Assembly: GCA_021498095.1 (NCBI GenBank)
Contig: JAIZWK010000001.1
Span: forward strand, 3,180,001 to 3,212,000
DNA length: 32,000 nt
DNA from: Candidatus Harpocratesius repetitus
GTDB taxonomy: Archaea > Asgardarchaeota > Lokiarchaeia > Sigyniarchaeales > Promethearchaeaceae
Direction of reading: 5' to 3'
The position numbers were made by a program, and so were the translations under genes. Below the pieces are notes generated by a model. The model was not told the DNA's origin. It saw only the letters and a list, made by a program, of their open reading frames with translations, and did no database searches. Numbering within the stretch: position 1 is the first letter of the stretch; the number at the start of each line of letters is the position of its first letter. Below are positions 965 to 29,515 of the stretch, piece by piece.

Positions 965-3900
965 TTATGGATTATTCTCTTTGGCAGCTTTTCTTTCTCT
1001 TCGGCGTTCTTCTCGTCTTTCTTTTCTTTCTTGGCGTTTTGATTTTCGTTTGGCTTTAGCTTCTTGTCGCTTTTCCCATTGTTCGATTTCTTTCGGTTTT
1101 TCCAGTTTATAGCGAGTGTACCCATATTTTTTATGTATAATGTCAAGTGTGTGAATATACATAATGGTTATATAAGATGTGTTTAGATCGTTAATGATCA
1201 AAGTCTGAGTTGCACCTCCGACCCATAGAAAGAGTGGAACAGCAATACCAACAGTAAGTATCATATTAACGTCGTAAATCCATCCGAAAAGTGCTCCAAC
1301 AAATCCACCTATTAACGCATTGGTTGCCCACATGGTATACTGCATTACTCGAAAAACTTTATTTATATTTGACCGTTTAATGAAAAGATCTACTGTATTA
1401 GTGACAATCATTCGGATAGAGCGAAGTAAAGCCATACTATATGGTCGATTTTCGATCACAATTGCAGGCATAGTAAACATATTTAACTGCATCCACAGAC
1501 GCTCAATTAAAGGAGCTTTCTTTTTCTTTCCTTTAACTTTCTTAGTTTTATCAAAAGATTGTGGATCAACAGGTTTCACTTTTGCTGCTAATTCCATGGC
1601 TTCTTTAGGTGTTTTTGGATGATAATCTCCCTTTAGGAATTTGGTTACAAATTGTATCATGTGAATAATTGTAGAAGTAAACGCATAACCCATTAATCCC
1701 CACCATCTTCGGCGTAAGATTCTAAAACTCTTTCCAAATGAGAGACTACCGCCTCGATACCAATGATGAATCATCAATTGTTTCATCCCTAAGGAGGAAT
1801 AAAATACAATATACATCAAGAATACAAATAGAGCAGTGAAACCGATAAACATATATGTATCACTTACTCCTAGTTTTGAAACTTCTTGATATATTACAGT
1901 AGGTCCATCTTTTTCTACCTTAAAGAAGAATTTCCATGCAGTAACTCCATAAAAGAATGAAAGTAAATTAACCCAAAGTGTCTGGAAAAATTGTGGAATT
2001 AACATCTGTTTCTCTTTTACTACAACCAAGCATGACATTTTAAGAAATTTACTTGCTAATTTGAATTTTCGATGCCAAATGGTTAAAAATAGAATAGAAG
2101 GTATGATAAGTACTAAAAAGACCCAATTGTAATTTTGTCCATTATATTCAAATTCAACATATCGATATAAAATATAATATAGAGAAACTTGCACAAATAA
2201 TACCAAATACATGACAATCATAGCAAGTTCCGCAAAAACTCGAACTATGAAATAAGCAGAAAGAAGAGAAACGATATAAATCCCTATGATAACCAATAAA
2301 CTCACGACAGAATATTTTCCTATAATTTTAGACATTCCTTCCAATTGATCGAAATCTACACCTGCATATTTTATGGATACATCTAAACCTATCACATATA
2401 AACTCCAAATTCCAATACCGAAGAAAATCATAAATAGAATGACTAAAATTCCTTCGCTTATTCTGTGAAATCGTCCGAAAATTTCGAAACCTTCTAAATC
2501 AAAAGGTGGATTCTCCCGATAGAGTTCTTTATATTTCTTAACTCGTCTGGATTTCAGTTCTTCTTGCTTTCGTTTTTGTTCTTCTTTTTCTTGACGCTTC
2601 CACTCTAATTTTTCCTTCTTAGATTTAAATTTTTCAATTCGCTTCTTTAAGAATTGGCTTTTCTTTGGATCTAATTCAGCCAATAATGTCAACAACTCAG
2701 CATCTTGTGTTTTCTTATAAAATCGAGTTAATTTTGAGAAAATATCTGGTTGAAAATTCGGTTGTTTTTGCCAAATATCTTTTAAAACCAAAGAAATTAT
2801 ATGGATCACTTCTTCATCATTAAATCGGAGTAAATTATAGCACATATTTAGAACATCATTTGTCCTCTCTGGAAATTTAGACACTAGGGTATCCAAATTA
2901 GAAGCCAACATGAATCTAACATCTTCATTAGAATCAAAAGCTAAGCGTTGGAAACTGTAAAAAATTCGGTTATTCTCAGCAAATAACTCAGGATTCATGA
3001 AAAGAACTTGAAGTATCATTTTCCCTGCATCTTTTCTCACAGCGGGATTGCGATCTGAGATAAGTTTAAAAATAATATCAAAGTAATCTAAGAAATCTTC
3101 TGGATTAGTACGAAAGATTGCCATGAAAACGCCATGAGTGGTGGATCGGATTTCAGGATTATCAGATGAAGCCAATTTGAGCAAGGTCGGAATTACTATT
3201 TGCATTCTTGTGCCTTTTTGATGATATTCAAGCAGTTTTGTTACCAATATCTTATGAACTTCAACAACGGATGTATTTGCAAAAGAACGAATATCTTGCT
3301 GAAATCTTATCTTATGAATATTATTCTTCTCTGCAAAGTTAAAGTAGGTCTCCAAAGCTTGAGTTGCAACTTCAGGAAGCGGATCTTGCACTGCTCTTGT
3401 TATAAGCTTCAAACAAATAGGAATATTTATTTGTACCAAAGTTATTTTGCTTATTTCTTGTATAATTGCTTTTTTAACAACAAGTGGATTGTTAACATTA
3501 TAGAGTTTTACAAAATATGTATAGATAAGCGATTTGATACGTTTATACTGCTTTCTATCATCTCTCTTGGATAAAGTGGGAAATCTATGAATAAAGAAGC
3601 CTAAAACTTCTATAGCTTTTGCTTTGACATCAGGATCATTCTGTGAGATTTGATGTTCAATAATTGAAAGAACTTTTGATGATTCACTTTCCATAGGAAT
3701 AGACATCAATACACTCATCGCTGTAATTTTTGTTCGTGCATCTTTAGAAGTGCGAAGTGTATCAACAATTAGATTTCTTACTAATTTTGCTTGATTGGTT
3801 GCTTGCAAAAGTCGGTTAAGTGCTTCAGAAACACCTTCTTGTACTATAGATTCTCTAGATTGCATCTGCTTATATATTAAAGGTTTAAATGTCTCTTCAT

Positions 3901-6900
3901 AAGGATTAACTTTTTCTGATTTATTGGTTTTGTAGTTAAGAATCTTATGTGTTTTAAATCCTTTTTTAGAATGATCACCAATTAAAGTGGCAAATAAAAT
4001 TAACGTTTGTTTCATGACTTTTGGTGAAACTGGAATATTTAACAGAAGTAAGTTATATAATACTTCAAAAATTTCATTGAAATAACCAGTATCAATTGAA
4101 TACAGAGTTTTCAGATGTTTAATCAAAATGCCATTAATATTTGCAGTAATCTTCGTAAAATTTTCCCTAATTTTGAATATTATATTATCTATCGTGATAT
4201 CTGGATAAGCATTGCGTTTATTAGAGATTTTTTCTAAAAATATTCTTGAATATACATCTAAAATTTTTGCTAATGCAATTTCTCCTCCTTTAGAATAATG
4301 TGCTTCTAAATAAACAAATAAATCATCATATTTTTGGGGAGCATAATAGAAAATTTCAGCAATTAATGCCAAAGTGGTGCCGTATACAGTCATTGTTTGA
4401 AAGTCTTCCTTGAAACCGAAGAAAGTTGTTTTCTCATCTTTTAATTCTTGTATTTCAGCGTATTCAAGAGATTCATCAATATCATCTGCTGACGAAATAA
4501 GAATTGGTAGCAACTCAACCTTATCCAAATGTGGAACGATTTTTGCAGCAATTTGAGACAAAATATTAAGTAAATCGATACGCACTAGTGTACTTAATGG
4601 AGTTTTTAGCAAAATTGCAATATCATCCAATAAATAATGAGGAGAATCACCTTCAATAAAGAATCTATGAACTTGGTGTCTAATATCCTTAACTTCATCA
4701 ATAAGAAGAGGACTAAAAAGATGTTGGAAGAATTCTTGAGCATATATATCTTCTCGAGTCTTCGCAATTACGATTAATGAAGAGACAGTTGCTTTTCTAA
4801 CATCTACACTTGGTGAATTTACTAATAATTGAAAATGAGGATAGAGAAGTTTCTTAAATAAATCAACGCTAATCCTTGCAGCTAAACTTCCCAAAGCCAC
4901 AGCAGCATCACTTTTATACTGTAAGATTGGGGATTTCAGATATTGTTCAATGTATTGAAAGAAATTTTCAAACCATTCCGGTTTTATACCTGTTAATTTA
5001 ACAACAATACCTATTTTTTGACGAACAATTTCATCATCAGAATCTCTGATTTCATTAAAAGTTTCCATTAATTTTGGGATAATGTCAGGAACAACAACAG
5101 CATAATTGCCAAAAGTTCTTAAAGTGGCAGTAATTAACCCCGTATCTCTATATTTCAATAATTCCAAGAATATATTATTGAGTTCATGACTTTCTTGCAC
5201 AAAATTTCGAGGGGCTTTATCAATTACATCTAATGCACCTGAAGTTACTCTGATTTTGCTTGTATTACTAAGAAGAGGGCGAATGAATTTCCAAACTGCT
5301 TTATGTTCTTGCTTTTCATAAAGACCAACAATCTGGAAAACTACTTGATAACCTTCACTAGATAAATTCTTTTGGATGAGTTCTTCACATAATTCTAAAG
5401 GATTCATAATGTTTCGGCGCACTATTTGACGTAAAACATTACGAGCCTGTTTTATTTTTTGTTTATCTTTTGATTCCAGTAATTCAATTAAAGTTGTTGT
5501 AAGCGATTTTTTATCAAGTTTTAGAATTATATTGTCAATTTCAGATTTTAATTTTTGAACAATATCAGAATTTTCATCAGAAAACAGTTCACCAATTATA
5601 ACTGAAATATGTTTTGCTGTTTGCTTGGAGAGATGATCTTTCATTTGAACATATTTAATAACTGTATCAGTAACTAGCAAACGCATTTCAACATTCTCGT
5701 GAGACGAATACTTCTTAAGGGTTTCAAAGTCATTAGCAATTATTGCACGATTTAAAACCCATTCATCTGCATTTTGTGGAATACTTTTATCCCAAAAAAC
5801 GAAATAAACTAAAAAGTAAATATTTAGGAATTTTTGAATCAAAATTGCAAACCCAAATGTTCGATATATCAATTCGCGGTCTGTTGTTCGAGAAAAATCT
5901 AAATTCAACCCAATCAAACCTAAATTATCATCAGGAAAGAAATCAGGATATTTATACATAGCATTCATAAAAATTGAAAAGGCAATTCCTGTAATTATAT
6001 ATGCAGCAAAAAGAACCATTTTTGAAGTATTAAGGGGTTCTTTGCTGAGAAATTTTTTGTAGAACCCAAATAGACCGAATAAGCATGTTGTAAAGATAAA
6101 ACCGAGAAAATCCAGAGGAAATAGGATGAAAAACATTTGAATTTTTTCAATTTCTTCAGATGTAATATCAGGATTTATTTGAGCAAGAAAAGTAACTATT
6201 TCTTCAACAGCACCAGAGCGAGTTACGCTTGGATTCGAGACACTTTCAGGAACCTTCCCCCAAAATATTGGGATGTAATCTATAGAAAAACTGATTAGGG
6301 AATAAATAGTAGAGATTATACCTAAAATAGCAATTATGTAAAAAATCATAATTTGAGGTTCTTTTTTTAATATTACACGCCTTCCCCGGTAAATAGCATG
6401 AGCAGTTCCATTATATGTATAGTAACTTAAATAGAACATAGGCCCTAAAAGAAGCCATACAAGAAAGATAATGCCCACAGCCCATCCATCTGATAAATTA
6501 CTAGGAATATTCCAATAATTCAAAGCAATATATGATGTAACTAAAGGTGCCAGTAGAACGATAAAAAAGAATAAAACCATAGCAGCTAAAGTGTTCCATG
6601 GAGATTCAAATCGATCTATAAGTTTATTTTCAATTGCTTGTTGAATTTCAGTGGCACCTTCTTGAGACGGCTTTGAAAGTAAGTAATATTCGTAAACTGG
6701 ATAGAAAAAAGAGAATCCCATAATAACAAAAAGTGTAATTGGTAAGAAATTCGGAAATTGAAAAGCTTTAACCATTTCTTCTGTCCAAATAGTTTTTTCA
6801 ACACTGGGTAATATCAATAATGCATTACGGGCAAAAATACTACTAATCATTGCTAAGGCAAAAATAATCGCAAAGGATACCATTACCGAAAATGTCATGG

Positions 6901-7078
6901 CACTGATTGTATTACGTATTTTCTGTCCTTTTGTATAAACTGGAGATGTTTTTAATTCTTGTTGAATATAAATCCAACATCGAATCATGATTACAATTCC
7001 AATAAACGTAAACAATAATGTTAATCCGCTATTTAAAAGCCCCGCATAATCATAATTATTTTCCGTCTGTAATAGCAT
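965..7078 (-). CDS. Giant membrane protein: N-terminal multi-TM domain, long HEAT-repeat solenoid, charged coiled coil, C-terminal CTL/SLC44 (Pns1)/DUF6159-like membrane domain
   Basis: 2037-aa uninterrupted ORF. About 10 hydrophobic segments in aa 1-430. HEAT-like motifs in aa ~435-1465 (LVNSPSVDVRKA, LLIDEVKDIRHQ, QISQNDPDVKAKA, AVQDPLPEVATQA, LASSDNPEIRST, LISDRNPAVRKDA, LAFDSNEDVRFM). Second TM block at aa ~1540-1980. K/E/R-rich tail. Confidence 0.85.
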   Translation of the reverse strand: MLLQTENNYDYAGLLNSGLTLLFTFIGIVIMIRCWIYIQQELKTSPVYTKGQKIRNTISAMTFSVMVSFAIIFALAMISSIFARNALLILPSVEKTIWTEEMVKAFQFPNFLPITLFVIMGFSFFYPVYEYYLLSKPSQEGATEIQQAIENKLIDRFESPWNTLAAMVLFFFIVLLAPLVTSYIALNYWNIPSNLSDGWAVGIIFLVWLLLGPMFYLSYYTYNGTAHAIYRGRRVILKKEPQIMIFYIIAILGIISTIYSLISFSIDYIPIFWGKVPESVSNPSVTRSGAVEEIVTFLAQINPDITSEEIEKIQMFFILFPLDFLGFIFTTCLFGLFGFYKKFLSKEPLNTSKMVLFAAYIITGIAFSIFMNAMYKYPDFFPDDNLGLIGLNLDFSRTTDRELIYRTFGFAILIQKFLNIYFLVYFVFWDKSIPQNADEWVLNRAIIANDFETLKKYSSHENVEMRLLVTDTVIKYVQMKDHLSKQTAKHISVIIGELFSDENSDIVQKLKSEIDNIILKLDKKSLTTTLIELLESKDKQKIKQARNVLRQIVRRNIMNPLELCEELIQKNLSSEGYQVVFQIVGLYEKQEHKAVWKFIRPLLSNTSKIRVTSGALDVIDKAPRNFVQESHELNNIFLELLKYRDTGLITATLRTFGNYAVVVPDIIPKLMETFNEIRDSDDEIVRQKIGIVVKLTGIKPEWFENFFQYIEQYLKSPILQYKSDAAVALGSLAARISVDLFKKLLYPHFQLLVNSPSVDVRKATVSSLIVIAKTREDIYAQEFFQHLFSPLLIDEVKDIRHQVHRFFIEGDSPHYLLDDIAILLKTPLSTLVRIDLLNILSQIAAKIVPHLDKVELLPILISSADDIDESLEYAEIQELKDEKTTFFGFKEDFQTMTVYGTTLALIAEIFYYAPQKYDDLFVYLEAHYSKGGEIALAKILDVYSRIFLEKISNKRNAYPDITIDNIIFKIRENFTKITANINGILIKHLKTLYSIDTGYFNEIFEVLYNLLLLNIPVSPKVMKQTLILFATLIGDHSKKGFKTHKILNYKTNKSEKVNPYEETFKPLIYKQMQSRESIVQEGVSEALNRLLQATNQAKLVRNLIVDTLRTSKDARTKITAMSVLMSIPMESESSKVLSIIEHQISQNDPDVKAKAIEVLGFFIHRFPTLSKRDDRKQYKRIKSLIYTYFVKLYNVNNPLVVKKAIIQEISKITLVQINIPICLKLITRAVQDPLPEVATQALETYFNFAEKNNIHKIRFQQDIRSFANTSVVEVHKILVTKLLEYHQKGTRMQIVIPTLLKLASSDNPEIRSTTHGVFMAIFRTNPEDFLDYFDIIFKLISDRNPAVRKDAGKMILQVLFMNPELFAENNRIFYSFQRLAFDSNEDVRFMLASNLDTLVSKFPERTNDVLNMCYNLLRFNDEEVIHIISLVLKDIWQKQPNFQPDIFSKLTRFYKKTQDAELLTLLAELDPKKSQFLKKRIEKFKSKKEKLEWKRQEKEEQKRKQEELKSRRVKKYKELYRENPPFDLEGFEIFGRFHRISEGILVILFMIFFGIGIWSLYVIGLDVSIKYAGVDFDQLEGMSKIIGKYSVVSLLVIIGIYIVSLLSAYFIVRVFAELAMIVMYLVLFVQVSLYYILYRYVEFEYNGQNYNWVFLVLIIPSILFLTIWHRKFKLASKFLKMSCLVVVKEKQMLIPQFFQTLWVNLLSFFYGVTAWKFFFKVEKDGPTVIYQEVSKLGVSDTYMFIGFTALFVFLMYIVFYSSLGMKQLMIHHWYRGGSLSFGKSFRILRRRWWGLMGYAFTSTIIHMIQFVTKFLKGDYHPKTPKEAMELAAKVKPVDPQSFDKTKKVKGKKKKAPLIERLWMQLNMFTMPAIVIENRPYSMALLRSIRMIVTNTVDLFIKRSNINKVFRVMQYTMWATNALIGGFVGALFGWIYDVNMILTVGIAVPLFLWVGGATQTLIINDLNTSYITIMYIHTLDIIHKKYGYTRYKLEKPKEIEQWEKRQEAKAKRKSKRQERKERREERRRERKAAKENNP

Positions 7079-8828: not shown

Positions 8829-9573
8829 ACACTTAACTAAGAATGGCAACCAGTGCCATCCAAGTTCTTGGCTTAATACTTGGCCTACAAGTCTAATCTT
8901 ACTCAATCTCATTTTTTCATTCTCTGATCATACTAAAATGTTTTAAAATTCCGCAAGGTCGATCCCAATAGCTCTCTGTCGGAATTAATATTAATGCGGT
9001 AACAATGGTATTAGAGATAAAATCCGGTTTTAAAAATAAATTTACCTGTATTGCAATCATTATCCGAGCACTTTTTGGTCGTGTTCTTATTTTTGTTTCT
9101 GAAAGTAATATCACAATTATATTTAACAGTACCCGATAATACTATCCTAGTGGATGAACAAAGGATGCTATAGTAATAATAAATTGGATAAGACTATTTT
9201 AACCGTTGAAATATTGATACTTCCTTTTGTTTAACGTAATTTTATTTAATTAATTAAACACATGAGCCCTTTGATGATTTAATAAAAAATTTTACGATTG
9301 TGAATATTTCTTTTATTTTTATTATTAAGGTATGAATATCCTATTTTTTGATAACTAGAGTATAATATCTTTTTCCTTTGGCCCATCATCTATATCTATC
9401 AAAAAAGAATTGTTTTTGCCAGTATAAAGGAGTGTACAATATTTTTAAAACGATTCCTTTAGCAAATTTGTTAAATTGTTAAATATTTCCAATTAAACTA
9501 TTCAAGAAGAATAGATTATCTTACACTCTTCTTAAAATGATGTAGAACTAATTATAAAGAAAAAATGAAGCTA

Positions 9574-9870
9574 CTATGGCAGCTGCAAGAATAGGCTGAA
9601 AAATGGGGATTCGAACAAAGTATCCGGGTAGTGTTTGTCCCTAAATCCCCCGTGAACAAAGTTCCATTCTTTAAAGCATTGATTCTTGCCTTCTATTTAA
9701 CCTTTAACAATTGTTTTCGTGATTTTTAATGTATTTTTGGGATTTACGGCCCAAATAACTACAACAGCCCTATTTTTAAAATTGAAAGCTATTATGGAAG
9801 GAGTTCCATCAATTTTATCTTTTTGCTACATATTGGATAGGACTACATTAGAAATATCATGGTTTAATTT
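9574..9870 (-). pseudogene. Possible decayed gene (unidentified)
   Basis: About 99 codons in one frame broken by only two stops (TAG 9826-9828, TAA 9697-9699): ...QKDKIDGTPSIIAFNFKNRAVVVIWAVNPKNTLKITKTIVKG*IEGKNQCFKEWNFVHGGFRDKHYPDTLFESPFF. No family recognised. Confidence 0.2.
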
Positions 9871-9901
9871 TCATATATAATCTTGATCACCTTTCTATAT
9901 T

Positions 9902-9966
9902 ATTTGATTAAATCAAATCTAAAACTTAGATTGCTGAAATTTGTTAAACAAAAAATGTTAAACATT
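9902..9966. promoter_or_regulatory. Cluster of four palindromes upstream of the GH13 gene (candidate operators)
   Basis: ATTTGATT-A-AATCAAAT (9902-9918), AATCTAA-AAC-TTAGATT (9916-9932), TTTGTT-A-AACAAA (9940-9952), AATGTT-A-AACATT (9954-9966). Confidence 0.4.
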
Positions 9967-10025
9967 AAGTGATTAAACCCAATAATTGAAATTTTTATAA
10001 TCTGTAAAAGTAATCTATATTTAAG

Positions 10026-15950: not shown

Positions 15951-16580
15951 ATGTTTAACAATCCCCAACGCAATCTTAGGCAAATTCGATCGTCAGAAGA
16001 AAAACGTGTTATTAAAAGTATCATGGAAATGATTGAACAGAATTTTGGGTTCAATTATATCGTAGTAGACGGACATGTGGTAGAAGTTCAGTTAATTTCA
16101 GCTGGAATAGCAATTATCCCACGTCAACTTAAATACCTGCCTTATTTAAAAAAATTGCAGTTACCTTCGAATCACTTAAAGAAATTACGGAATTTAGATG
16201 GATGTAAAACCTTGAACATGCTAAATTTACATGATAATAGGCTAACCAATGCAACATTGCGACCTTTGGAAGCATTAACACAATTAAAAGTCTTGGATCT
16301 TTCACAAAATGAAATAGAAGGCTGGGAAAACATAGATCATTTGTATTCACTCGAATCACTGATTTTGGAAGATAATTTAATTAAGAATATTCCTGCTTTA
16401 GATCTACCTCAATTAAAAATACTGGATCTTCGTGGTAATCCTATTTCTAAACTTGAAAACCTACATTTATTTGAAAACTTAGTTGATCTTCGATTAGATG
16501 CAAGTAAATTATCAGAGAAAGAGCAAAAAGCGTATGAACAAGGAATTGAAGCGATAAAGGATTACTGTTCTTCTCATTGA
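15951..16580 (+). CDS. Leucine-rich repeat protein
   Basis: Several LxxLxLxxNxL repeats (LKKLQLPSNHL, LNMLNLHDNRL, LKVLDLSQNEI, LESLILEDNLI, LKILDLRGNPI). Confidence 0.88.
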   Translation: MFNNPQRNLRQIRSSEEKRVIKSIMEMIEQNFGFNYIVVDGHVVEVQLISAGIAIIPRQLKYLPYLKKLQLPSNHLKKLRNLDGCKTLNMLNLHDNRLTNATLRPLEALTQLKVLDLSQNEIEGWENIDHLYSLESLILEDNLIKNIPALDLPQLKILDLRGNPISKLENLHLFENLVDLRLDASKLSEKEQKAYEQGIEAIKDYCSSH

Positions 16581-16651: not shown

Positions 16652-19114
16652 CTAAACTTGAAATATTTTTTGAGCAATATTTACTGCCGATTTAGCATCT
16701 TGGCCGTAAAAATCAGCTCCAATTTTGTTTGCAAATTCAGGATTTAAAACAGCCCCTCCAACCATAATTTGACATTGAAAATCTCGACTCTTTATTTCCT
16801 TAATGATTTTTTGCATGGAAATTACAGTTGTCGTCATTAAGGCACTTAATCCAACCAATGGGGCGCGGTACTGTTTAATGGCATCGATTATTTTAATGGC
16901 TGGAACATCTTTTCCCAAATCAATTACTCGATATCCATAGTTTTCTAACAAAATTTTAACGATATTTTTTCCAATGTCATGAACATCTCCTTCAACAGTT
17001 GCCAATATAACTGTTCCCTTCGAAATTGGCGCATTTTCAGTCTGTTTTAGTCTTTCTTTAATTAAATTAAATGCAATTTTAACTGTTTCAGCCGATCGAA
17101 TTAGTTGGGGTAAAAAGATTTCATGGTTTTCATAACGTCTTCCGACTTCATCCAAAGCAGGAATTAAGAAGGTATCCACTACTTGCATTGGTGTGAAGGT
17201 TTTTAAGGAATTTTCAGTTAGTTGTGCAATTTTGCTTTTTAATCCCTTTAGAATAACACCTTGTAGACTTTCATCTTCTGACTCACCTGGTTGATCAGAT
17301 TGATTGGATTTACCAGATCGACTGGATTTACCAGATTGACTGGATTGATTTATTTGACCTAATTTAACAGATGCAGAAACAGGTAAATATTCCTTATATT
17401 TTTTAATAAAATCCTTACTATCAAGATCTAAATTGGCTAATACACGGAACGCTGCGATGGTTTCCATAATATCAGTAGATAATGGATCTGTAATAGGAGC
17501 TTTTAATCCACATTGTAACGCCATAGCTAAATAAGTGCGATTAATAAGAGGTCGAGCAGGTAATCCATAAGATACATTACTTGCACCCAATACAGTGGCA
17601 ATTTGATATTTTTTAGTTAATATTCGTAAAGCTTCCAATGAATCTTGAACTGCGCGCTGTTGAGCAGAAGCTGTTAAAGTAAGACAATCCACTAACAGTG
17701 ATTCTTTAGGAATTCCATAAGTTTTTGCAGTATTAATTATTTTTTCTGCAATTTCAATTCGATCTTGCACAGATTTTGGCAATCCTCGCTCGTCCAAACA
17801 TAACGCAACTACTAAACATCCATATTTTTTTACAATGGGAAAAATCTTCTGCATACTTTCTGCTTTTCCATTCACTGAATTAATAATCGGCTTTCCATTG
17901 TAATATCGACATGCTTTTTCTAGAGCATCTGCATTAGAACTGTCAAATTGGAGAGGAATATCGATAATCTCTTGTAATTCTCGAGATATTCGGGGAAGAA
18001 TGGTAGATTCATCAATTTCTGGAAGACCCACATTTACATCAAGAATATGTGCTCCAGCTTCCTTCTGCTTAATACCTTCTTGGAGTAGATAATCAATATC
18101 GCCTTTTTTTAATGCTTCTTTTATGCGTTTTTTACCAGTTGGATTAATGCGTTCACCAATAATCACAATATCTTTTCCAATCTCCACAGTATGTCCCGGA
18201 GAAGCGCATGTTGTCCGAATTTTGGAAGTGATGGGTTTTGGAATAAAATCATGAAATTCTTGAACTATCATCTGGATAAATTCAGGTGTGGTACCGCAAC
18301 ATCCTCCAATAATATGAACCCCAAGTTCCAGAATCTTAGCCATATCAGAAGTATATTCTTCCGGAGTAATGAGAAATTCAGTTTCTCCGTCTTTTAATAC
18401 AGGTAATCCTGCATTCGGTTGCACAATAACTGGAATTGATGCAAATTGCATTATTTGTTCTACAATGGGGTAAATTTCTGCGGGACCAAGTGAGCAATTT
18501 ACCCCTAATGCATCAATGCCTAATCCTTCTAATACTGTAACTAAGGTTTCTGGGTCGGTTCCTGTCAATGTTCGACCGTCTTCTTGAAATGTCATAGTAC
18601 AGAAAATGGGGAATTGAGAATTTTCTTTAGCAGCTAAAATTGCTACTTTTGCTTCATATAAATCTGAAATAGTTTCGATTAGAATTAAATCAGCGCCAGC
18701 TTTTACTCCAGCTTGTACTTGCTCTTGAAACATGGAATAAGCTTCATTAAAACCTAACGGTCCAACAGGTGCAAGCATTTGACCGATTGGCCCAATATCC
18801 AAAGCAATTAACTTTCCTGGTGCTGCATCTCGAACTAAATTAATAGCTTGGCTTATTACATCTTCAACTTCTAATCCTGCTTGTTGCAACTTGTAACGAT
18901 TTGCTCCAAATGTATTCGTTTTAATCATTTCAGCCCCTGCTTCTGCATATTCACGATGAATACTGCGGATCAATTCAGGGTGGGTAAAATTCAACTTTTC
19001 TGGAACTTCTCCTGTTTTTAAACCTTTTTTCTGCAGAGTGGTTCCCATTGCCCCGTCAAAAAAGCAGAGGCGTTTATAGATTTCGTTTTCGATATTCACA
19101 ATAAGTTCCCTCAC
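16652..19114 (-). CDS. metH: Cobalamin-dependent methionine synthase (Hcy-binding, pterin-binding and B12-binding domains; lacks the activation domain)
   Basis: FFDGAMGT, TNTFGAN, GVNCS and GGCCGT (Zn ligands), IGERINPTG, ATVEGDVHDIGKNIV (DxHxxG), VGLSALMTTT. Start could be the GTG at 19099. Confidence 0.93.
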   Translation of the reverse strand: MRELIVNIENEIYKRLCFFDGAMGTTLQKKGLKTGEVPEKLNFTHPELIRSIHREYAEAGAEMIKTNTFGANRYKLQQAGLEVEDVISQAINLVRDAAPGKLIALDIGPIGQMLAPVGPLGFNEAYSMFQEQVQAGVKAGADLILIETISDLYEAKVAILAAKENSQFPIFCTMTFQEDGRTLTGTDPETLVTVLEGLGIDALGVNCSLGPAEIYPIVEQIMQFASIPVIVQPNAGLPVLKDGETEFLITPEEYTSDMAKILELGVHIIGGCCGTTPEFIQMIVQEFHDFIPKPITSKIRTTCASPGHTVEIGKDIVIIGERINPTGKKRIKEALKKGDIDYLLQEGIKQKEAGAHILDVNVGLPEIDESTILPRISRELQEIIDIPLQFDSSNADALEKACRYYNGKPIINSVNGKAESMQKIFPIVKKYGCLVVALCLDERGLPKSVQDRIEIAEKIINTAKTYGIPKESLLVDCLTLTASAQQRAVQDSLEALRILTKKYQIATVLGASNVSYGLPARPLINRTYLAMALQCGLKAPITDPLSTDIMETIAAFRVLANLDLDSKDFIKKYKEYLPVSASVKLGQINQSSQSGKSSRSGKSNQSDQPGESEDESLQGVILKGLKSKIAQLTENSLKTFTPMQVVDTFLIPALDEVGRRYENHEIFLPQLIRSAETVKIAFNLIKERLKQTENAPISKGTVILATVEGDVHDIGKNIVKILLENYGYRVIDLGKDVPAIKIIDAIKQYRAPLVGLSALMTTTVISMQKIIKEIKSRDFQCQIMVGGAVLNPEFANKIGADFYGQDAKSAVNIAQKIFQV
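17303..17347. repeat. 18-bp in-frame tandem repeat (~2.5 copies) inside metH
   Basis: attggatttaccagatcg actggatttaccagattg actggattg; encodes QSSQSGKSSRSGKSN. Confidence 0.8.
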
Positions 19115-19955
19115 TTAAATAAATACAATGAGAATAATTTAAACATGTGTGGCATTTTGGATGATCAATTCGTTTTGAGCGCTGAATTAATTCTGATATA
19201 GAATCAGAATCTGTATTATTATCCGCTTCTAAAATCGGGGTGATACCAAAAATACCCGTTATAGACTTTCGTGGAAAAAGAGTATAAAATTTTGATACAG
19301 AAAGGCCAATCTTAACAGGAGCTTGCAATAGGGAAAGGATTATTGGCTGCACATTTAAACTCAAATCACCATAACCGGGAGAAAATCTAAAAGTAAACTG
19401 CATTCCCTTATCATTATAAGATTTTTCAACAGAACGTTGTCTTTCATCACATACCGCTTCAACATATGCACTGGCAGCTGCATCATAAATTATCCCATGA
19501 GCTAAATCGAATTTATTATAATAAGCAATTTGTTGATCGATTTTATACCCCAATGTCACCGCAACAATGCCGCATTGACTACTTTTTTTCAATAGTTTGG
19601 TTAAATCTTGAGAGTTAAAAACAATATTCGAATTTTTTAAGATAATTTGGGGTGGATCCATAGAAACACTAATTGGAAAAAAGGATATAAGAAATTGTGG
19701 GCGTGAATGGGAAATAACTTCATCAATTATTTCCAGAATCTCTTGATCCATTTCACTGTAGCGCACATTATTCTCACTGTTCTTCTCACTGTTCTTCTCA
19801 CTGCTCTTCTCATTGTTCTTCCCATTTTTCCCTACACTCAGATATTGAGCTTTTTCTCTTTTAATTTCTTTTTTTTCCATTACCTTCTGCTTTATTGGAT
19901 TTAAACCTTCAATATACCGTTTAACTTCGGGTAATAGAGTTTGTGGTGAAATCAT
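19074..19955 (-). CDS. Stand-alone methionine synthase AdoMet activation domain protein
   Basis: VAVTLG, YDAAASAYVEA, FRFSPGYGDL and PRKSITGIFG, plus a C-terminal CxxC...C...C cluster. Overlaps the metH start. Confidence 0.88.
   Translation of the reverse strand: MISPQTLLPEVKRYIEGLNPIKQKVMEKKEIKREKAQYLSVGKNGKNNEKSSEKNSEKNSENNVRYSEMDQEILEIIDEVISHSRPQFLISFFPISVSMDPPQIILKNSNIVFNSQDLTKLLKKSSQCGIVAVTLGYKIDQQIAYYNKFDLAHGIIYDAAASAYVEAVCDERQRSVEKSYNDKGMQFTFRFSPGYGDLSLNVQPIILSLLQAPVKIGLSVSKFYTLFPRKSITGIFGITPILEADNNTDSDSISELIQRSKRIDHPKCHTCLNYSHCIYLSEGTYCEYRKRNL
19771..19818. repeat. 12-bp in-frame tandem repeat x4 inside the activation-domain gene
   Basis: ttctcactgttc ttctcactgttc ttctcactgctc ttctcattgttc; encodes the NNEKSSEKNSEKNSEN stretch. 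Confidence 0.85.
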
Positions 19956-20092
19956 TCGAGTTTTCTCCCTATTAAATTATGAATATTTAATATTATTTGG
20001 TGATAAGATATATGGCATTATAAAAAAAAAAAACAAAAAGAAGAAGAAGAATAATTTCTTGCTCTCATTTGATAATATCTATTATATTGCTA

Positions 20093-20962
20093 TTATATTA
20101 AATCATGGATCTTTTCAATTATTTTTTGGGCAATGTGAGGTTTGTTCATGGTATATATGTGAATTCCATCTATCCCGGCTTGAATAAGTGCTCGAATCTG
20201 CTTTACAGCATAATTAATTCCAAATTCTTCCACCATTTGAGGATCATCTTGTCGTTTGCTTAACTCTTGAAGTAAAGATGGGGGAAAAGTTGCTCCACAG
20301 AGCGATGCAATTCGCTTAACCTGTTTTATATTTGTAACCGGCATAATCCCAGCAGAAAATGGAAGGTTTACTCCAAGTATATGTAGTTTTTGAATGCTAT
20401 CGAGTAGGAAAGCGTTATCAAAAAACATCTGTGAGATAAGAAAATCTGTTCCTTGTTTGACTTTATAGGCAACATTTCTAAAGTCTGTTTCTTGATTCGG
20501 CGCTTCAATATGTCCTTCAGGATAAAAAGCTGCACCGATGCAAAATTTTCCCTCTGATTTTAAAAATTGAATCAAATCGCTGGCAAATTCAAAATGCAGT
20601 GGAGTAGGAAAGACAAAATTTGGATCAGTGGGTAAATCTCCTCGCAATGCTAGAACATTTTGAATATTGTGATTTTCAAGATCTTGAACAATGCGATGAA
20701 TTTGATCTTTCGTAGAACTAATGCACGTTAAATGAGCTAAGGGTTCTATTCCGAAATTTTCTTTGATTAATCCAGCAATCTCAATTGTTCGATCTCGAGT
20801 ACTTCCACCAGCTCCATATGTAACACTCATATAATCAGGTTTTAATTTACTGAAAGTTTCCAGTTGGTTTACTAATTTATTAATCGGAAAGTTCTTTTTT
20901 GGTGGAAAAATCTCAAATGAAAGTACTAGATGCTTGTTGGAATAGAGTTGACTTATATACAT
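20093..20962 (-). CDS. metF: 5,10-methylenetetrahydrofolate reductase (bacterial type)
   Basis: SFEIFPPK, SVTYGAGGS, AHLTC, LALRGD, AAFYPEGH, ISQMFFD, AGIMPV, IHIYTMN. ATG at 20962 preferred over TTG at 20971. Confidence 0.95.
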   Translation of the reverse strand: MYISQLYSNKHLVLSFEIFPPKKNFPINKLVNQLETFSKLKPDYMSVTYGAGGSTRDRTIEIAGLIKENFGIEPLAHLTCISSTKDQIHRIVQDLENHNIQNVLALRGDLPTDPNFVFPTPLHFEFASDLIQFLKSEGKFCIGAAFYPEGHIEAPNQETDFRNVAYKVKQGTDFLISQMFFDNAFLLDSIQKLHILGVNLPFSAGIMPVTNIKQVKRIASLCGATFPPSLLQELSKRQDDPQMVEEFGINYAVKQIRALIQAGIDGIHIYTMNKPHIAQKIIEKIHDLI

Positions 20963-21201
20963 TTTACGCAAACCTATTGATGGAAAAGAAGCGTTCTTCT
21001 TAAAATTATGGGATGGGCGGAAATAGAGAATTTCTACCGTATGTGTCCAAAAACATATAGTTTTTTTAAAAATATATTAACATTTCATACCATTATTCTC
21101 TAAATATTGCATATGTGTTGAAAATCTAATTAATAATCTTTACATTTGCTTTTTGCAAAATATTTAAATAGGTGTATTGATACTATTTACTTGAATTCGA
21201 T

Positions 21202-25306: not shown

Positions 25307-25963
25307 ATGGTATTTCGTAAATTATTTCCCAGCAAAAAAACCCAAAGTGAAAAACTGACCACAGAAGCTCGATTAAAGAACTTAACGCATAATTTAGATA
25401 TGAAAATCAAAGATTACGAAAACAAAGCACAATTATGCCGTTCTAAAGCAAAGAATTTTCTAAAATCGGGTAACCAAAAAGCAGCTAAAACCATGCTCAT
25501 TCGTTATAAACAATTCCAAAATAAAATTTTACAATATAATGCTATGATAATGCGGGCTGAACGACAACTAGATGCTTTGGAACAAGCCAATGTTATTTCA
25601 GATGTCGCAGGAACTATGGAAAGTGCAGCAGTTGAATTGAAGACGGCAGCTACCACAGTTAATGCAGAACGCGCCTTAGAGATTACAGAAGAAGCAGAAG
25701 AAAGCATTGAGCAGATTAATGAAGCAGGAGAACTTTTTGCTGGAGATCCAGAAGTTGATATGGGAATTGATATTGACGAAGATCTTTCTCAGTTGGAAAC
25801 GGAATTGATGCTGGAAGATGCTGGTCAGCTTCCTGAAACACCCGAAGAAAAGATGGAAAGTATTTCATTATACAGTTCAGAATCAGAACCGGAGAAAGAA
25901 ACAAAAGATTCCGATGCATTAAAGAAAGAGATTGAAAAATTGAAAAAGGAATTGGATATGTAA
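25307..25963 (+). CDS. ESCRT-III (Snf7 family, Vps20/32/60-like) protein
   Basis: N-terminal amphipathic MVFRKLF. Snf7-like core (GNQKAAKTMLIRYKQFQNKI...QLDALEQANVISDVAGTMESAAVELK), IDEDLSQLETEL, acidic Pro-containing linker (LPETP), C-terminal MIM1-like helix LKKEIEKLKKEL. Confidence 0.88.
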   Translation: MVFRKLFPSKKTQSEKLTTEARLKNLTHNLDMKIKDYENKAQLCRSKAKNFLKSGNQKAAKTMLIRYKQFQNKILQYNAMIMRAERQLDALEQANVISDVAGTMESAAVELKTAATTVNAERALEITEEAEESIEQINEAGELFAGDPEVDMGIDIDEDLSQLETELMLEDAGQLPETPEEKMESISLYSSESEPEKETKDSDALKKEIEKLKKELDM

Positions 25964-26194: not shown

Positions 26195-29100
26195 TTACTT
26201 ATTGAAATTATCTATTTTCTTCTTTTTTATCCCTCTTTTTCGTAATTGACAAGTCTCTCCACTTTGCCTTTGAAATTCATGGATTAATCCGATAAGGCTT
26301 ATAAAAGAGAATATTACGCTTGACACAAATATTAAAGGAGAGTATCCCACAATATTTTTCGGTTTTTCATAAATTTTCCACGCTTCTATTAAAAATCCGG
26401 TGTCCAGCATCATTGATATAAAAGAAGAATATTCATATGAACCAATGGAAATTCCTCCGATTACTACCCATGATTTTGTGAGTGTAAATAGCTCGGATTT
26501 CTTATCTCCATCGCAATCTACAGCATAATGCCCAAGTCCTACGTTTTTTAGATTAGAATATTGATAAGTAGCATTCATCCCTTCGTTTCTAATGTAATTG
26601 TTATATGATCTGGCTTGGAATTTTAGGTGATAATAAGCATCATCATTTTCGCCGCTATATTCAAAAATTCTTAATTCTCCGCTATCATAATCGCTCCGAT
26701 GTGCAGTAATCTCCACTTTTCCATCCCCATCAATATCGATAGTTTCAAAATTATTTTTTCCTCTCGCACCCCATTCGCTATGTGTTGATGCGCTATAAAA
26801 ATCGTCTTTCCAAATTAATTCCAAAGAGTTTTTCCCTGTTTCATCATCTTGCACTAATTTCCAAACGCCAAATCCTGATTGTGTGAACTCTGTTTCTTCA
26901 TAATAATGATTTCCTTGGTATTGAATGAAGATTTCATCAGATCCTTTTCCGTCAAAATTACCAAGAGCAATACTATAATATGCCCAGCATTTCCATTCGG
27001 AGAGAGATTGAACCAAGATAGTATTATATTTATGTTGGGCTTCATCGTAATCCATAATTTTAATCGTATCGTATTCAGAAAAAACAACTTCCAATTCTGG
27101 ATCATTATCTAAATTTCCTACATCTGTCCAATAAATAGAACCTAGCTCTGTAGAAGATTCAGATTTACCGATCTCCACAACTTCATATTCATCATCTTTT
27201 TCACCACTTCCTGAAATCATGGTTATTTTTCCACATGAAGCAATGCAGATATCTTGTAATCCATCTTTATCAATATCTTCTTTCCATACAGCTCCTTGAT
27301 GGCTCATACCTCTTACGGGTAATTCAACAGAAGGATCATGCCTAACCATGATCCATTCAGGTAAGCGTTCATCTCCATCACTTTTACCCATATATTCCAT
27401 TACAATAGTTCCTTTATCACTAGTTCCAAAGAAGATTTCAGGTCTTCCATCTCCATCGACATCACCGGGATAAGCGGATGTAAAATTTCTGAGGGGTAAT
27501 AAATAATATGGAAAGTAAAAGTATTGAGTTAAGGGTGTTCCGTCATGATCATAAATCAGTATATGGCTTAGATTAAATTCATAGCCGATATTTAAGTTTC
27601 CTCCTGTAATAATTTCAAGATCAGAATCTCCATCCAAATTTCCTGCTTCAAAAAAGATAGGATTTCCAGGAACTTGAGCAATCCATGGTAATACTAAACT
27701 AGAACCCATCATTTCGTCAGCAATTTCATCCCCTTCGGCTGTTGCTGAAACATATTGAATATTTAATAGCGAATGCGGTACAGACGAAATTGTAATCAAT
27801 GAATTCAAAATAAGCATTACAATTAAGAATTTTTTAAGAAATTTGGATTTGGATCTTTTATGATTTCTCAAGTGAGATAATACTGAATAGGTGTATAATG
27901 CTAAAATTGTCCATATTAGAGTTGCGAGAAATGTGGTATTAGGATATCCAGGAATATTTTTGTTGCTTGATTCGTTCTCAATTTCAAATTCCTTAAAATT
28001 ATCTGAATCTACTGCAAATACTTCGGATCTATTTGATTTAAATTGTCCGTTTATTTGACGAACTGTGTAATAAAATGTAACTTTTTCATTTTCATTTGAT
28101 ATCAAATCTGTCCAGTTTTCATGAAACCATGTACGATTTCCCCTATAGATCACTACGGCATCTTCCATATTTTCATTAGTTGATCGTTCTAATTCGTAGT
28201 ATCCAAAAGGTGTTCCTGTCCAGTATAGTGATACTTCATCATAATAATAATTACTTGGTTTACATAATATTGCGGGATAATTATCAAGATACCATTCAGA
28301 AGTTAATACGTATACTTGTCCAATTATTGGGTCTTCTCCAACCCCGATATCGATTTCAACTCCAGAATACCATGTATCTTGAAAATAAAGTAAACAATCT
28401 TTACCTACGGGGATATTGAGAAATTCTAAATTAAACGGTTGAAGAGACAATTCATCCGTTATGTAATAAATTTTGTCATTATTCGTGGCAACTACAACTT
28501 CATTCTCATTCCAAGCCATGTCAACCATATCTATTCCTAAGTTAATCGGTGTTGTCCAGTCTATTCCATTATTACTTTTTGAAACAGAAATGTTTGTTTG
28601 TCCAATTATTATTCCAATTTCATCCGCTCCTAATTCTGATTTAATTGGAAATAATTTTCCAAGAATTGATGGAATGTAAATTATTTTCTCATTATTAACT
28701 GGATTTGCAGGTTGACCAGATATGTAGAGATAATCTCCCATAAAGAGTGCAGATGTATAATTACCTTTATTACTAAATGTTGTTTCTACGTTAGCCCCAT
28801 TTTCGTTTTCAAGATTTGATACTCTAAAATGATAAAAATCTTGATTTTGAACCGCCAAAACATGGATTTCATTATCAAGTTTTGCAACATAAAAATCCCA
28901 ATATGTTTTCCATTGAATGCTTGATAATTGCACATCTGCTATCATTTCTAAGTCTTCTGTGTATACCACCATTCGTGCATAAGTGCCTAAATTAATTTTT
29001 GCCGTGTGCACAATGTATAAAAGACCATCTATCCAGAAGATTTCTGGATAACTCCAAGTAGAACCCAGTTTTATTGTAGTTCCTTCAGATTTTGTATTAT

Positions 29101-29515
29101 TTGTTCTTGTTAATGTTATATATCCTGTATCGGGTCCAGATCCGCCCCAAACATCTAAAGAAAAGATGTAATTATCAGTTGAAACCCACGCACCATGTCC
29201 TTTCTTAATATTTTCATTCAAAGCAGGAATTTTCATAATACTATTCATTTCATCTGAAACTTTCATCTCTTTCATAACTGAGGAATCTTTAAGGCAATAA
29301 TTATTCCTTTCTACGGTGAAATATGAGTTAGTAGAGTGAAAATTTGTAGATATCGATGTAGTATCATTTTTAAGATTTATAGAATTCTTATATGGATTTT
29401 GTATAGGAACCTGTATTATGCAAAAAATTTCTATAAAGATCAAAAATGCCAGAAAAATTATGCATATACTGCGAAATTTATTATAGGTTCCCTTATTTCG
29501 TTTTAATATATGCAT
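26195..29515 (-). CDS. Large surface protein: signal/TM, probable beta-propeller + FN3-like domain, internal IPGY-TM-basic-TM hairpin, 7 FG-GAP/VCBS-like repeats, C-terminal TM
   Basis: 1106-aa ORF. FN3-like VSLYW...YELERS...YYTVRQ. IPGY at 27944-27955. DxDxDG repeats GNLDGDSD, GDVDGDGR, DIDKDGL, GNLDNDPE, GNFDGKGS, DIDGDGK, DCDGDKK. C-terminal IVGY-TM-basic tail. Confidence 0.85.
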   Translation of the reverse strand: MHILKRNKGTYNKFRSICIIFLAFLIFIEIFCIIQVPIQNPYKNSINLKNDTTSISTNFHSTNSYFTVERNNYCLKDSSVMKEMKVSDEMNSIMKIPALNENIKKGHGAWVSTDNYIFSLDVWGGSGPDTGYITLTRTNNTKSEGTTIKLGSTWSYPEIFWIDGLLYIVHTAKINLGTYARMVVYTEDLEMIADVQLSSIQWKTYWDFYVAKLDNEIHVLAVQNQDFYHFRVSNLENENGANVETTFSNKGNYTSALFMGDYLYISGQPANPVNNEKIIYIPSILGKLFPIKSELGADEIGIIIGQTNISVSKSNNGIDWTTPINLGIDMVDMAWNENEVVVATNNDKIYYITDELSLQPFNLEFLNIPVGKDCLLYFQDTWYSGVEIDIGVGEDPIIGQVYVLTSEWYLDNYPAILCKPSNYYYDEVSLYWTGTPFGYYELERSTNENMEDAVVIYRGNRTWFHENWTDLISNENEKVTFYYTVRQINGQFKSNRSEVFAVDSDNFKEFEIENESSNKNIPGYPNTTFLATLIWTILALYTYSVLSHLRNHKRSKSKFLKKFLIVMLILNSLITISSVPHSLLNIQYVSATAEGDEIADEMMGSSLVLPWIAQVPGNPIFFEAGNLDGDSDLEIITGGNLNIGYEFNLSHILIYDHDGTPLTQYFYFPYYLLPLRNFTSAYPGDVDGDGRPEIFFGTSDKGTIVMEYMGKSDGDERLPEWIMVRHDPSVELPVRGMSHQGAVWKEDIDKDGLQDICIASCGKITMISGSGEKDDEYEVVEIGKSESSTELGSIYWTDVGNLDNDPELEVVFSEYDTIKIMDYDEAQHKYNTILVQSLSEWKCWAYYSIALGNFDGKGSDEIFIQYQGNHYYEETEFTQSGFGVWKLVQDDETGKNSLELIWKDDFYSASTHSEWGARGKNNFETIDIDGDGKVEITAHRSDYDSGELRIFEYSGENDDAYYHLKFQARSYNNYIRNEGMNATYQYSNLKNVGLGHYAVDCDGDKKSELFTLTKSWVVIGGISIGSYEYSSFISMMLDTGFLIEAWKIYEKPKNIVGYSPLIFVSSVIFSFISLIGLIHEFQRQSGETCQLRKRGIKKKKIDNFNK

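Follow-up and report, generated by a model that had tools for sequence, protein, structure and literature searches.

What kind of protein is encoded by an uninterrupted open reading frame of 2037 codons that carries a membrane block at each end and a long series of HEAT-like repeats between them? This question is raised by the gene at positions 965–7078 of a 32,000-nucleotide stretch of Candidatus Harpocratesius repetitus (Asgardarchaeota, Lokiarchaeia; GenBank assembly GCA_021498095.1, contig JAIZWK010000001.1, positions 3,180,001–3,212,000). We refer to the whole stretch, which is AT-rich with a G+C content of about 30%, as the window; the host genome was assembled as a single 4.36-Mb contig. 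Our analysis points to a fusion of two protein families: a Lokiarchaeial family of membrane-anchored HEAT-repeat proteins, here called TM-HEAT (TM, transmembrane), and a divergent branch of the choline-transporter-like (CTL)/Pns1/DUF6159 superfamily. Read from the N-terminus, the protein consists of a block of nine TM helices, a HEAT-repeat region of about 1040 aa, a linker rich in charged residues, a second TM block and a Lys/Arg/Glu-rich tail. The features are as follows, in window coordinates:

965–7078, minus strand: whole gene, 2037 codons, uninterrupted from an ATG start to a stop codon at 965–967
5789–7078, minus strand: N-terminal nine-TM domain (aa 1–430), from hydropathy, the AlphaFold model and family alignments
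2660–5788, minus strand: HEAT-repeat solenoid, predicted to be cytosolic (aa 431–1473), from Pfam HEAT, HEAT_2, Adaptin_N and Cnd1
2474–2659, minus strand: fusion junction (aa 1474–1535), from the junction alignment; a Lys/Glu-rich helical linker followed by YKELY-x-E-x-PPFDLEGFE
1124–2473, minus strand: CTL/Pns1/DUF6159-like polytopic domain (aa 1536–1985), from profile searches, a PF04515 scan and hydropathy
1499–1633, minus strand: conserved Lys-rich loop (DKTKKVKGKKKK, aa 1816–1860) inside the CTL-like module, also present in the protein P0018
968–1123, minus strand: Lys/Arg/Glu-rich C-terminal tail (aa 1986–2037), with 22 Lys/Arg and 11 Asp/Glu in 53 residues
7100–7115, minus strand: TATA-like box read from the sequence as aaaatataaag, some 30 nt upstream of the start codon

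The intact 2037-aa frame, together with domain and hydropathy scans, bore out the three-module layout that an initial annotation, made from the sequence alone, had described. A 19-residue hydropathy scan gave nine strong peaks in aa 1–430 and a second set in aa 1537–1960. The N-terminal block is therefore present as annotated, with nine helices by both hydropathy and AlphaFold rather than the ten or so originally counted. The charged stretch noted between the solenoid and the second membrane block was also found, with 20 Lys/Arg and 9 Asp/Glu in the 47 residues of aa 1474–1520.

The long frame could in principle be an artefact of faulty assembly, of a frameshift introduced in sequencing or of two genes in decaying read-through. 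In favour of this, most homologs of the two halves are separate genes. Against it, the genome is closed in one contig, and no internal Met or stop codon occurs in aa 1473–1549. Two orthologs from other Promethearchaeota metagenome-assembled genomes, P0003 (2040 aa, 79% identity) and P0004 (2046 aa, 69% identity), align over 99–100% of the length, and a second genome of the genus (G136) contains an open frame of 2042 aa and shares a downstream radical-SAM gene with the host. Of the public contigs aligned to nt 1800–3400, one is near-identical and may be where this DNA itself comes from. Another, 24.6 kb long, independent and obtained in a different study, is about 93% identical and spans nt 1800–3398 and the junction with 112 substitutions and no indels; by our own count, 34 of the 40 substitutions listed fall at third codon positions. 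The junction is uninterrupted in at least four divergent assemblies. Both TM modules are better conserved than the solenoid, with identities of 89/74–75% for the N-terminal TM (N-TM) domain, 88/80% for the CTL-like module and 70/62% for the HEAT region. The existing evidence already contradicts an artefact, an explanation to which we give next to no chance, and the long frame is genuine and under purifying selection. Separate homologous genes with an unsupported junction had been named at the outset as grounds for doubt; most homologs are indeed two genes and the fusion is limited to one genus, but several independent assemblies support the junction. The TATA-like box and the T-runs read past the stop codon (at about 925–960) suggest that the gene forms its own transcription unit.

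What, then, is the C-terminal block? It had been proposed to be CTL-like, and a direct match to PF04515 or DUF6159 was expected. No such match was obtained by hmmscan with aa 1520–2037 (E ≤ 1), and NCBIfam returned nothing in either membrane block. When the genome was scanned in six frames with PF04515, a single match appeared at window nt 1214–2122 (minus strand; E 0.003), which covered profile positions 2–299 of 326 and scored 16.9 bits, below the cut-off of 26.9. The relatives of the block did pass this test. We built a profile from the C-termini of the three fused proteins, searched it against 1.8 billion representative proteins and obtained stand-alone proteins of 541–616 aa at E-values of 1e-125 to 5e-98, as well as more distant proteins of 460–670 aa down to 1e-7. 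Among those scanned, P0012 (1e-125), P0025 (2.8e-32) and P0032 (1.1e-14) scored 39.8, 41.3 and 41.7 bits, respectively, against the full PF04515 profile, above its cut-off, and P0040 scored 53.7 bits for DUF6159. A 21-sequence family profile reached yeast PNS1 (9f63_A) at 5.8e-13 over profile positions 29–426, a link seen with this profile only, as the 3-sequence C-terminal profile had no match among PDB sequences. The top cluster in a protein-language-model search was from Thorarchaeota (score 0.91, 195 of 256 features in common), and its members carry DUF6159 in 75% and Choline_transpo in 42% of cases. The CTL link is therefore transitive, since the direct test fails while close relatives pass it, and the direct Pfam check looks negative although the proposed relationship was right. 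From these results we conclude that aa 1536–1985 represent a divergent member of the CTL/Pns1/DUF6159 superfamily.

Several traits of the C-terminal 450 aa, homologous by profile searches to the CTL/SLC44/yeast Pns1 family (PF04515) and to DUF6159 (PF19656), recall Pns1. These include a short M1–M2 loop and about ten hydrophobic or amphipathic segments, a number with which hydropathy was compatible, and the segment LNMFTMPAIVIENRPYSMA presumably aligns with the CTL signature around N-x-x-A-Y...G-x-x-F-x-x-S-A. The module differs from the CTL/Pns1 family in that it scores below the Pfam cut-off itself, carries the conserved Lys-rich loop and a basic tail, and has 1500 aa of further domains attached. 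AlphaFold with a 3-sequence alignment gave an unusable model (pLDDT, or predicted local distance difference test score, of 37), so that the fold was taken from sequence. Searches with the query protein, a broad profile and PF04515 identified the fused copy as the sole CTL-like locus of the host genome, and CTL-like genes were present in 107 of the 400 Asgard genomes searched. A literature search found no paper treating CTL-like proteins and Asgard archaea together.

The same CTL-like subfamily also occurs with other N-terminal extensions, namely in P0018 (907 aa) and in a 1065-aa frame of another genus (G143:C750:5382-6881, L046). The extension of P0018 is hydrophobic, has no Pfam match and is unrelated to HEAT or to the N-TM domain described here. 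The CTL-like module may be prone to fusion.

We next asked to what the rest of the protein belongs. Apart from the fused orthologs, full-length relatives are 1434–1562 aa long and match aa 1–1473 only, that is, the N-TM domain and the solenoid; aa 1–1473 constitute a full-length member of the Lokiarchaeial TM-HEAT proteins (e.g., P0056 of Ca. Lokiarchaeum ossiferum), with 26–40% identity, whereas the other members stop near aa 1475 and lack the second membrane block. This core of about 1450–1560 aa is regarded as a family confined to one family-level clade of Lokiarchaeia. Among 400 Asgard genomes, the N-TM profile matched strongly in 13 of 13 belonging to the family of the window and in the one genome that represents a neighbouring family. 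Weaker matches came from open frames of about 1120–1290 aa in other families of the same order, which suggests a wider TM-HEAT superfamily. The host genome encodes four TM-HEAT paralogs including the fused gene; the others are proteins of 1477 aa (34% identity) and 1560 aa (26%) and a distant TM plus HEAT protein of 1145 aa, located outside the window as follows:

G000:C1:549976-553413 (= L066:976-4413), minus strand: fourth, distant TM-HEAT paralog, 1145 aa, TM plus HEAT

Source annotations name the members "hypothetical protein" or "HEAT repeat domain-containing protein". The eukaryotic signature proteins reported for Lokiarchaeia include an asCOG category "adaptin N heat repeats domain" (PMC9834061), and we assume that TM-HEAT proteins are probably counted under it.

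How the two families came together can be read from the junction alignment. Unfused TM-HEAT proteins terminate at the position of aa 1473–1478. Stand-alone CTL-like proteins open with a Lys/Glu/Arg-rich tail of 20–90 residues, after which comes Y-x-[ED]-x-Y-x-E-x-PPF-x-LEG-F, a motif that corresponds to aa 1516–1535 of the fused protein. As the alignment places both ends at this site, the stretch first described as a coiled coil is the former N-terminal tail of a CTL-like protein that once stood alone. Fused frames of 2038–2042 aa occurred in the window's genus only, and in a tree of the N-TM domain the three fused proteins formed one clade (Shimodaira–Hasegawa-like approximate likelihood ratio test, SH-aLRT, 100) nested among unfused proteins of 1485–1520 aa. 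The closest CTL relatives in sister genera (37–46% identity) are separate open frames of 525–591 aa, which lie 3.6 Mb, 66 kb and 40 kb from the TM-HEAT gene in three sister-genus genomes. By alignment and tree, the fusion was a simple end-to-end join in the ancestor of one genus: the 3′ end of one TM-HEAT paralog met the charged N-terminal tail of the only stand-alone CTL-like gene in the lineage. No CTL gene was found beside the unfused TM-HEAT orthologs, whose adjoining genes are unrelated, and no synteny around the gene extends beyond the genus. The rearrangement behind the fusion cannot be reconstructed because synteny stops there.

The N-TM domain itself matched no sequence family in Pfam, NCBIfam, PDB sequence profiles or protein-language-model features. 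It has conserved motifs (PSQEGPMEIQ, LGPxFYLSYY and KFLSKEPLN), and a search for stand-alone N-TM proteins returned contig-truncated fragments only; the domain is confined to Lokiarchaeial TM-HEAT proteins. AlphaFold with a 30-sequence alignment gave a model with a pLDDT of 82.4 and a predicted TM-score (pTM) of 0.83. In the predicted topology, the inner loops carry 19 Lys/Arg and the outer loops 8, so that the domain is predicted to be oriented N-out/C-in. When the model was compared with Swiss-Prot models by Foldseek, all 30 top matches were LMBD1, LMBR1, LMBR1L, Golgi pH regulator (GPHR, GPR89) or plant GTG proteins, each with a probability of 1.00, E-values of 3.7e-4 to 2.9e-3, whole-domain coverage and TM-scores by query of 0.33–0.46. 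Clusters of the AlphaFold database gave the same LMBR1/LMBD1/GPHR families plus unnamed proteins. PDB structure searches gave no clear match, and a protein shape search yielded TM-scores of at most 0.28. Transporters of the MFS class, the best Foldseek match in the PDB (E 0.019, TM-score 0.18), were judged spurious.

Does the resemblance to LMBR1-like proteins reflect common descent? Nine TM helices are common to the N-TM domain and these families, which have an N-out/C-in topology. LMBD1 serves as an escort for the transporter ABCD4 and binds the AP-2 adaptor. Differences from the LMBR1 superfamily are the TM-scores of 0.33–0.46 between predicted models, the absence of PF04791 or PF12430 sequence similarity, and the absence from the N-TM domain of the long cytosolic loop between TM5 and TM6. 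None of 30 N-TM family members matched LMBR1 (PF04791) or ABA_GPCR (PF12430) at E ≤ 10, and genome-wide scans with the two profiles did not match this gene. LMBR1/LMBD1/GPHR is the only known fold class that the predicted model resembles, and we give true homology with the LMBR1 superfamily roughly even odds.

The solenoid had been described as a long HEAT array, a kind of scaffold known from eukaryotic coat adaptors, karyopherins and PP2A-A. Its HEAT nature was confirmed: aa 435–1473 scored 46.7–54.6 bits for HEAT (PF02985; cut-off 23.5) and 28.5–33.2 bits for HEAT_2 (PF13646; cut-off 27.7), and with units above the Pfam cut-offs the region classes by sequence as a HEAT-repeat protein. Adaptin_N (PF01602) reached 55.9 bits against a cut-off of 37, a score summed over 4–5 separate stretches, the best of which spans just profile positions 350–429 of 524. 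A 24-sequence profile of aa 435–1475 searched against the PDB matched the PP2A A subunit at 1e-17 and AP-1 beta1 at 6e-12, followed by CAND1, designed armadillo proteins, AP-3 delta and AP-2 beta, always in several stretches of 70–180 residues each (about 115 aa for AP-1 beta). Neither the Adaptin_N alignment nor the PDB profile search followed the adaptin trunk colinearly. We rejected the idea that the solenoid is specifically an adaptin or a karyopherin, as the matches are fragmentary and PP2A-A ranks ahead of AP-1 beta. At the level of single repeats the solenoid resembles PP2A A, the large subunits of AP-1/2/3, CAND1 and condensin Cnd1; it differs from these eukaryotic scaffolds in its scattered 70–180-aa matches, in having neither a colinear full-length match nor an appendage domain, and in being covalently anchored to the membrane, unlike any of them. 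By its sequence matches it is best regarded as generic HEAT, not as an adaptin orthologue.

On which side of the membrane would the solenoid lie? CTL1 and PNS1 have ten TM helices, an M1–M2 loop outside and three amphipathic helices (PMC13160678), and this arrangement places their N-terminus in the cytosol. Nine N-out/C-in helices followed by an even-numbered CTL module with a cytosolic N-terminus would therefore leave the solenoid in the cytoplasm and both ends of the protein in the same membrane. We thus infer, from predicted topologies, that solenoid, linker and tail are cytoplasmic and that both TM modules share one membrane. With a membrane anchor at both ends of a solenoid of about 1040 aa, the two blocks might instead sit in different membranes or in distant patches, for example in protrusions, and the solenoid might span the gap or impose curvature; cultured relatives do form elaborate protrusions (PMC9834061). 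This is very unlikely in our judgement: the two-anchor form exists in one genus only, the ancestral and widespread form is single-anchored, one membrane suffices for the topology deduced above, and there is no evidence of internal membranes.

With regard to function, we assign a probability of about 0.6 to the following reading, drawn from sequence and predicted models: the protein is a scaffold tethered at both ends that cooperates with a CTL-type bowl protein. TM-HEAT proteins would act as membrane-anchored protein-interaction scaffolds, the N-TM domain could be an escort or anchor of the LMBD1/LMBR1 kind, and the solenoid might bring soluble partners to the CTL module or exert control over it. 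The fusion suggests that the TM-HEAT scaffold and the CTL-type protein cooperate; being a Rosetta-stone sign, it would imply joint action even in genomes that encode the two separately. A complex prediction for the N-TM domain and the CTL module scored 0.00, which carries no weight either way.

Would the protein rather be a regulated transporter, in which the CTL-like module moves a small organic cation (choline, ethanolamine or similar) and the N-TM and HEAT parts serve as a gating sensor or regulator with no wider scaffold role? The module is in a superfamily named for choline transport, it is the best-conserved part of the protein, and the fused copy, as the sole one in the genome, must supply the function of the family. 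A 2026 structural study, however, saw neither choline nor ethanolamine transported by CTL1, PNS1 or CherI, reported that the bowl fold fits no known transport mechanism, and noted a conserved lipid-binding groove (PMC13160678). Each genome also has four TM-HEAT paralogs, most of which were never fused to a transporter, so that their primary role would be independent of CTL. We consider a regulated transporter possible but on the unlikely side. As the function of eukaryotic CTL proteins is unsettled, a scaffold-linked, non-transport role is at least as plausible as a regulated transporter. A further proposal goes beyond cooperation: TM-HEAT proteins would share true common ancestry with the eukaryotic LMBR1/LMBD1/GPHR endomembrane proteins and have a built-in adaptor-like solenoid, and the fusion would reveal an ancestral escort–adaptor–cargo partnership with the CTL family. 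To this proposal we attach little credence.

Several observations weigh against the scaffold reading. The fusion is found in one genus only and is compatible with a fortuitous, merely tolerated event; gene neighbourhoods differ between genera; and the co-occurrence of the close CTL subfamily with TM-HEAT amounts to one clade and has little statistical weight. The resemblance to LMBR1 is seen between predicted models only, the TM-scores stay below 0.5 and sequence gives no signal for it, and the CTL fold was taken from sequence because its AlphaFold model was unusable. Finally, the Lys-rich loop at aa 1816–1860 (the would-be M7–M8 loop) falls on the predicted outer face, contrary to the positive-inside rule, which makes the topology around it uncertain.

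How much of this is new? The parts are of known kinds: HEAT repeats, a CTL/DUF6159 module and a TM-HEAT family that has no name but had been sequenced before. Neither Pfam nor NCBIfam has a model spanning the whole protein and we found no paper on it, in keeping with the original view that the architecture is not a named family. The three-part architecture, Asgard CTL-like proteins and the LMBR1-like prediction appear to be undescribed in the literature searched, and the same literature does not describe membrane-anchored giant HEAT solenoids with four paralogs per genome. Fusion of an Asgard archaeon's only CTL-like protein to a HEAT scaffold provides an independent hint on the partners of CTL proteins, whose function is disputed, and the Rosetta-stone argument can be tested in cultured relatives with unfused genes. 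By predicted structure only, the N-terminal anchor resembles a nine-TM family that elsewhere typifies the endomembrane system of eukaryotes. If the proposal of LMBR1 homology and an ancestral partnership is true, it would add LMBR1-like and CTL-like families to the Asgard eukaryotic signature proteins and would hint that the contested CTL proteins have a scaffold-linked role other than transport.

Other loci in the window were recorded in passing. About 1.2 kb at 8829–10025 contains no open reading frame of 80 aa or more and no Rfam or tRNA match; it is the most AT-rich part of the window's left half, with a G+C content of 0.267 in the 1-kb bin 9001–10000. A methionine-synthase cluster at 16652–20971 (minus strand) encodes an 820-aa MetH-like protein with S-methyl_trans, Pterin_bind and B12-binding domains, followed by MTHFR. 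A weak match to the Met_synt_B12 activation domain lies on an overlapping, separate 293-aa frame, and MetH therefore appears to be split. Between pyruvate kinase and MetH, a leucine-rich-repeat protein of 209 aa (LRR_4, LRR_8) is encoded at 15951–16580 (plus strand). Further along, a 218-aa Snf7/ESCRT-III protein (PF03357, 46.8 bits) is encoded at 25307–25963 (plus strand), adjoined by the gene for a 1106-aa FG-GAP-repeat protein at 26195–29515 (minus strand).

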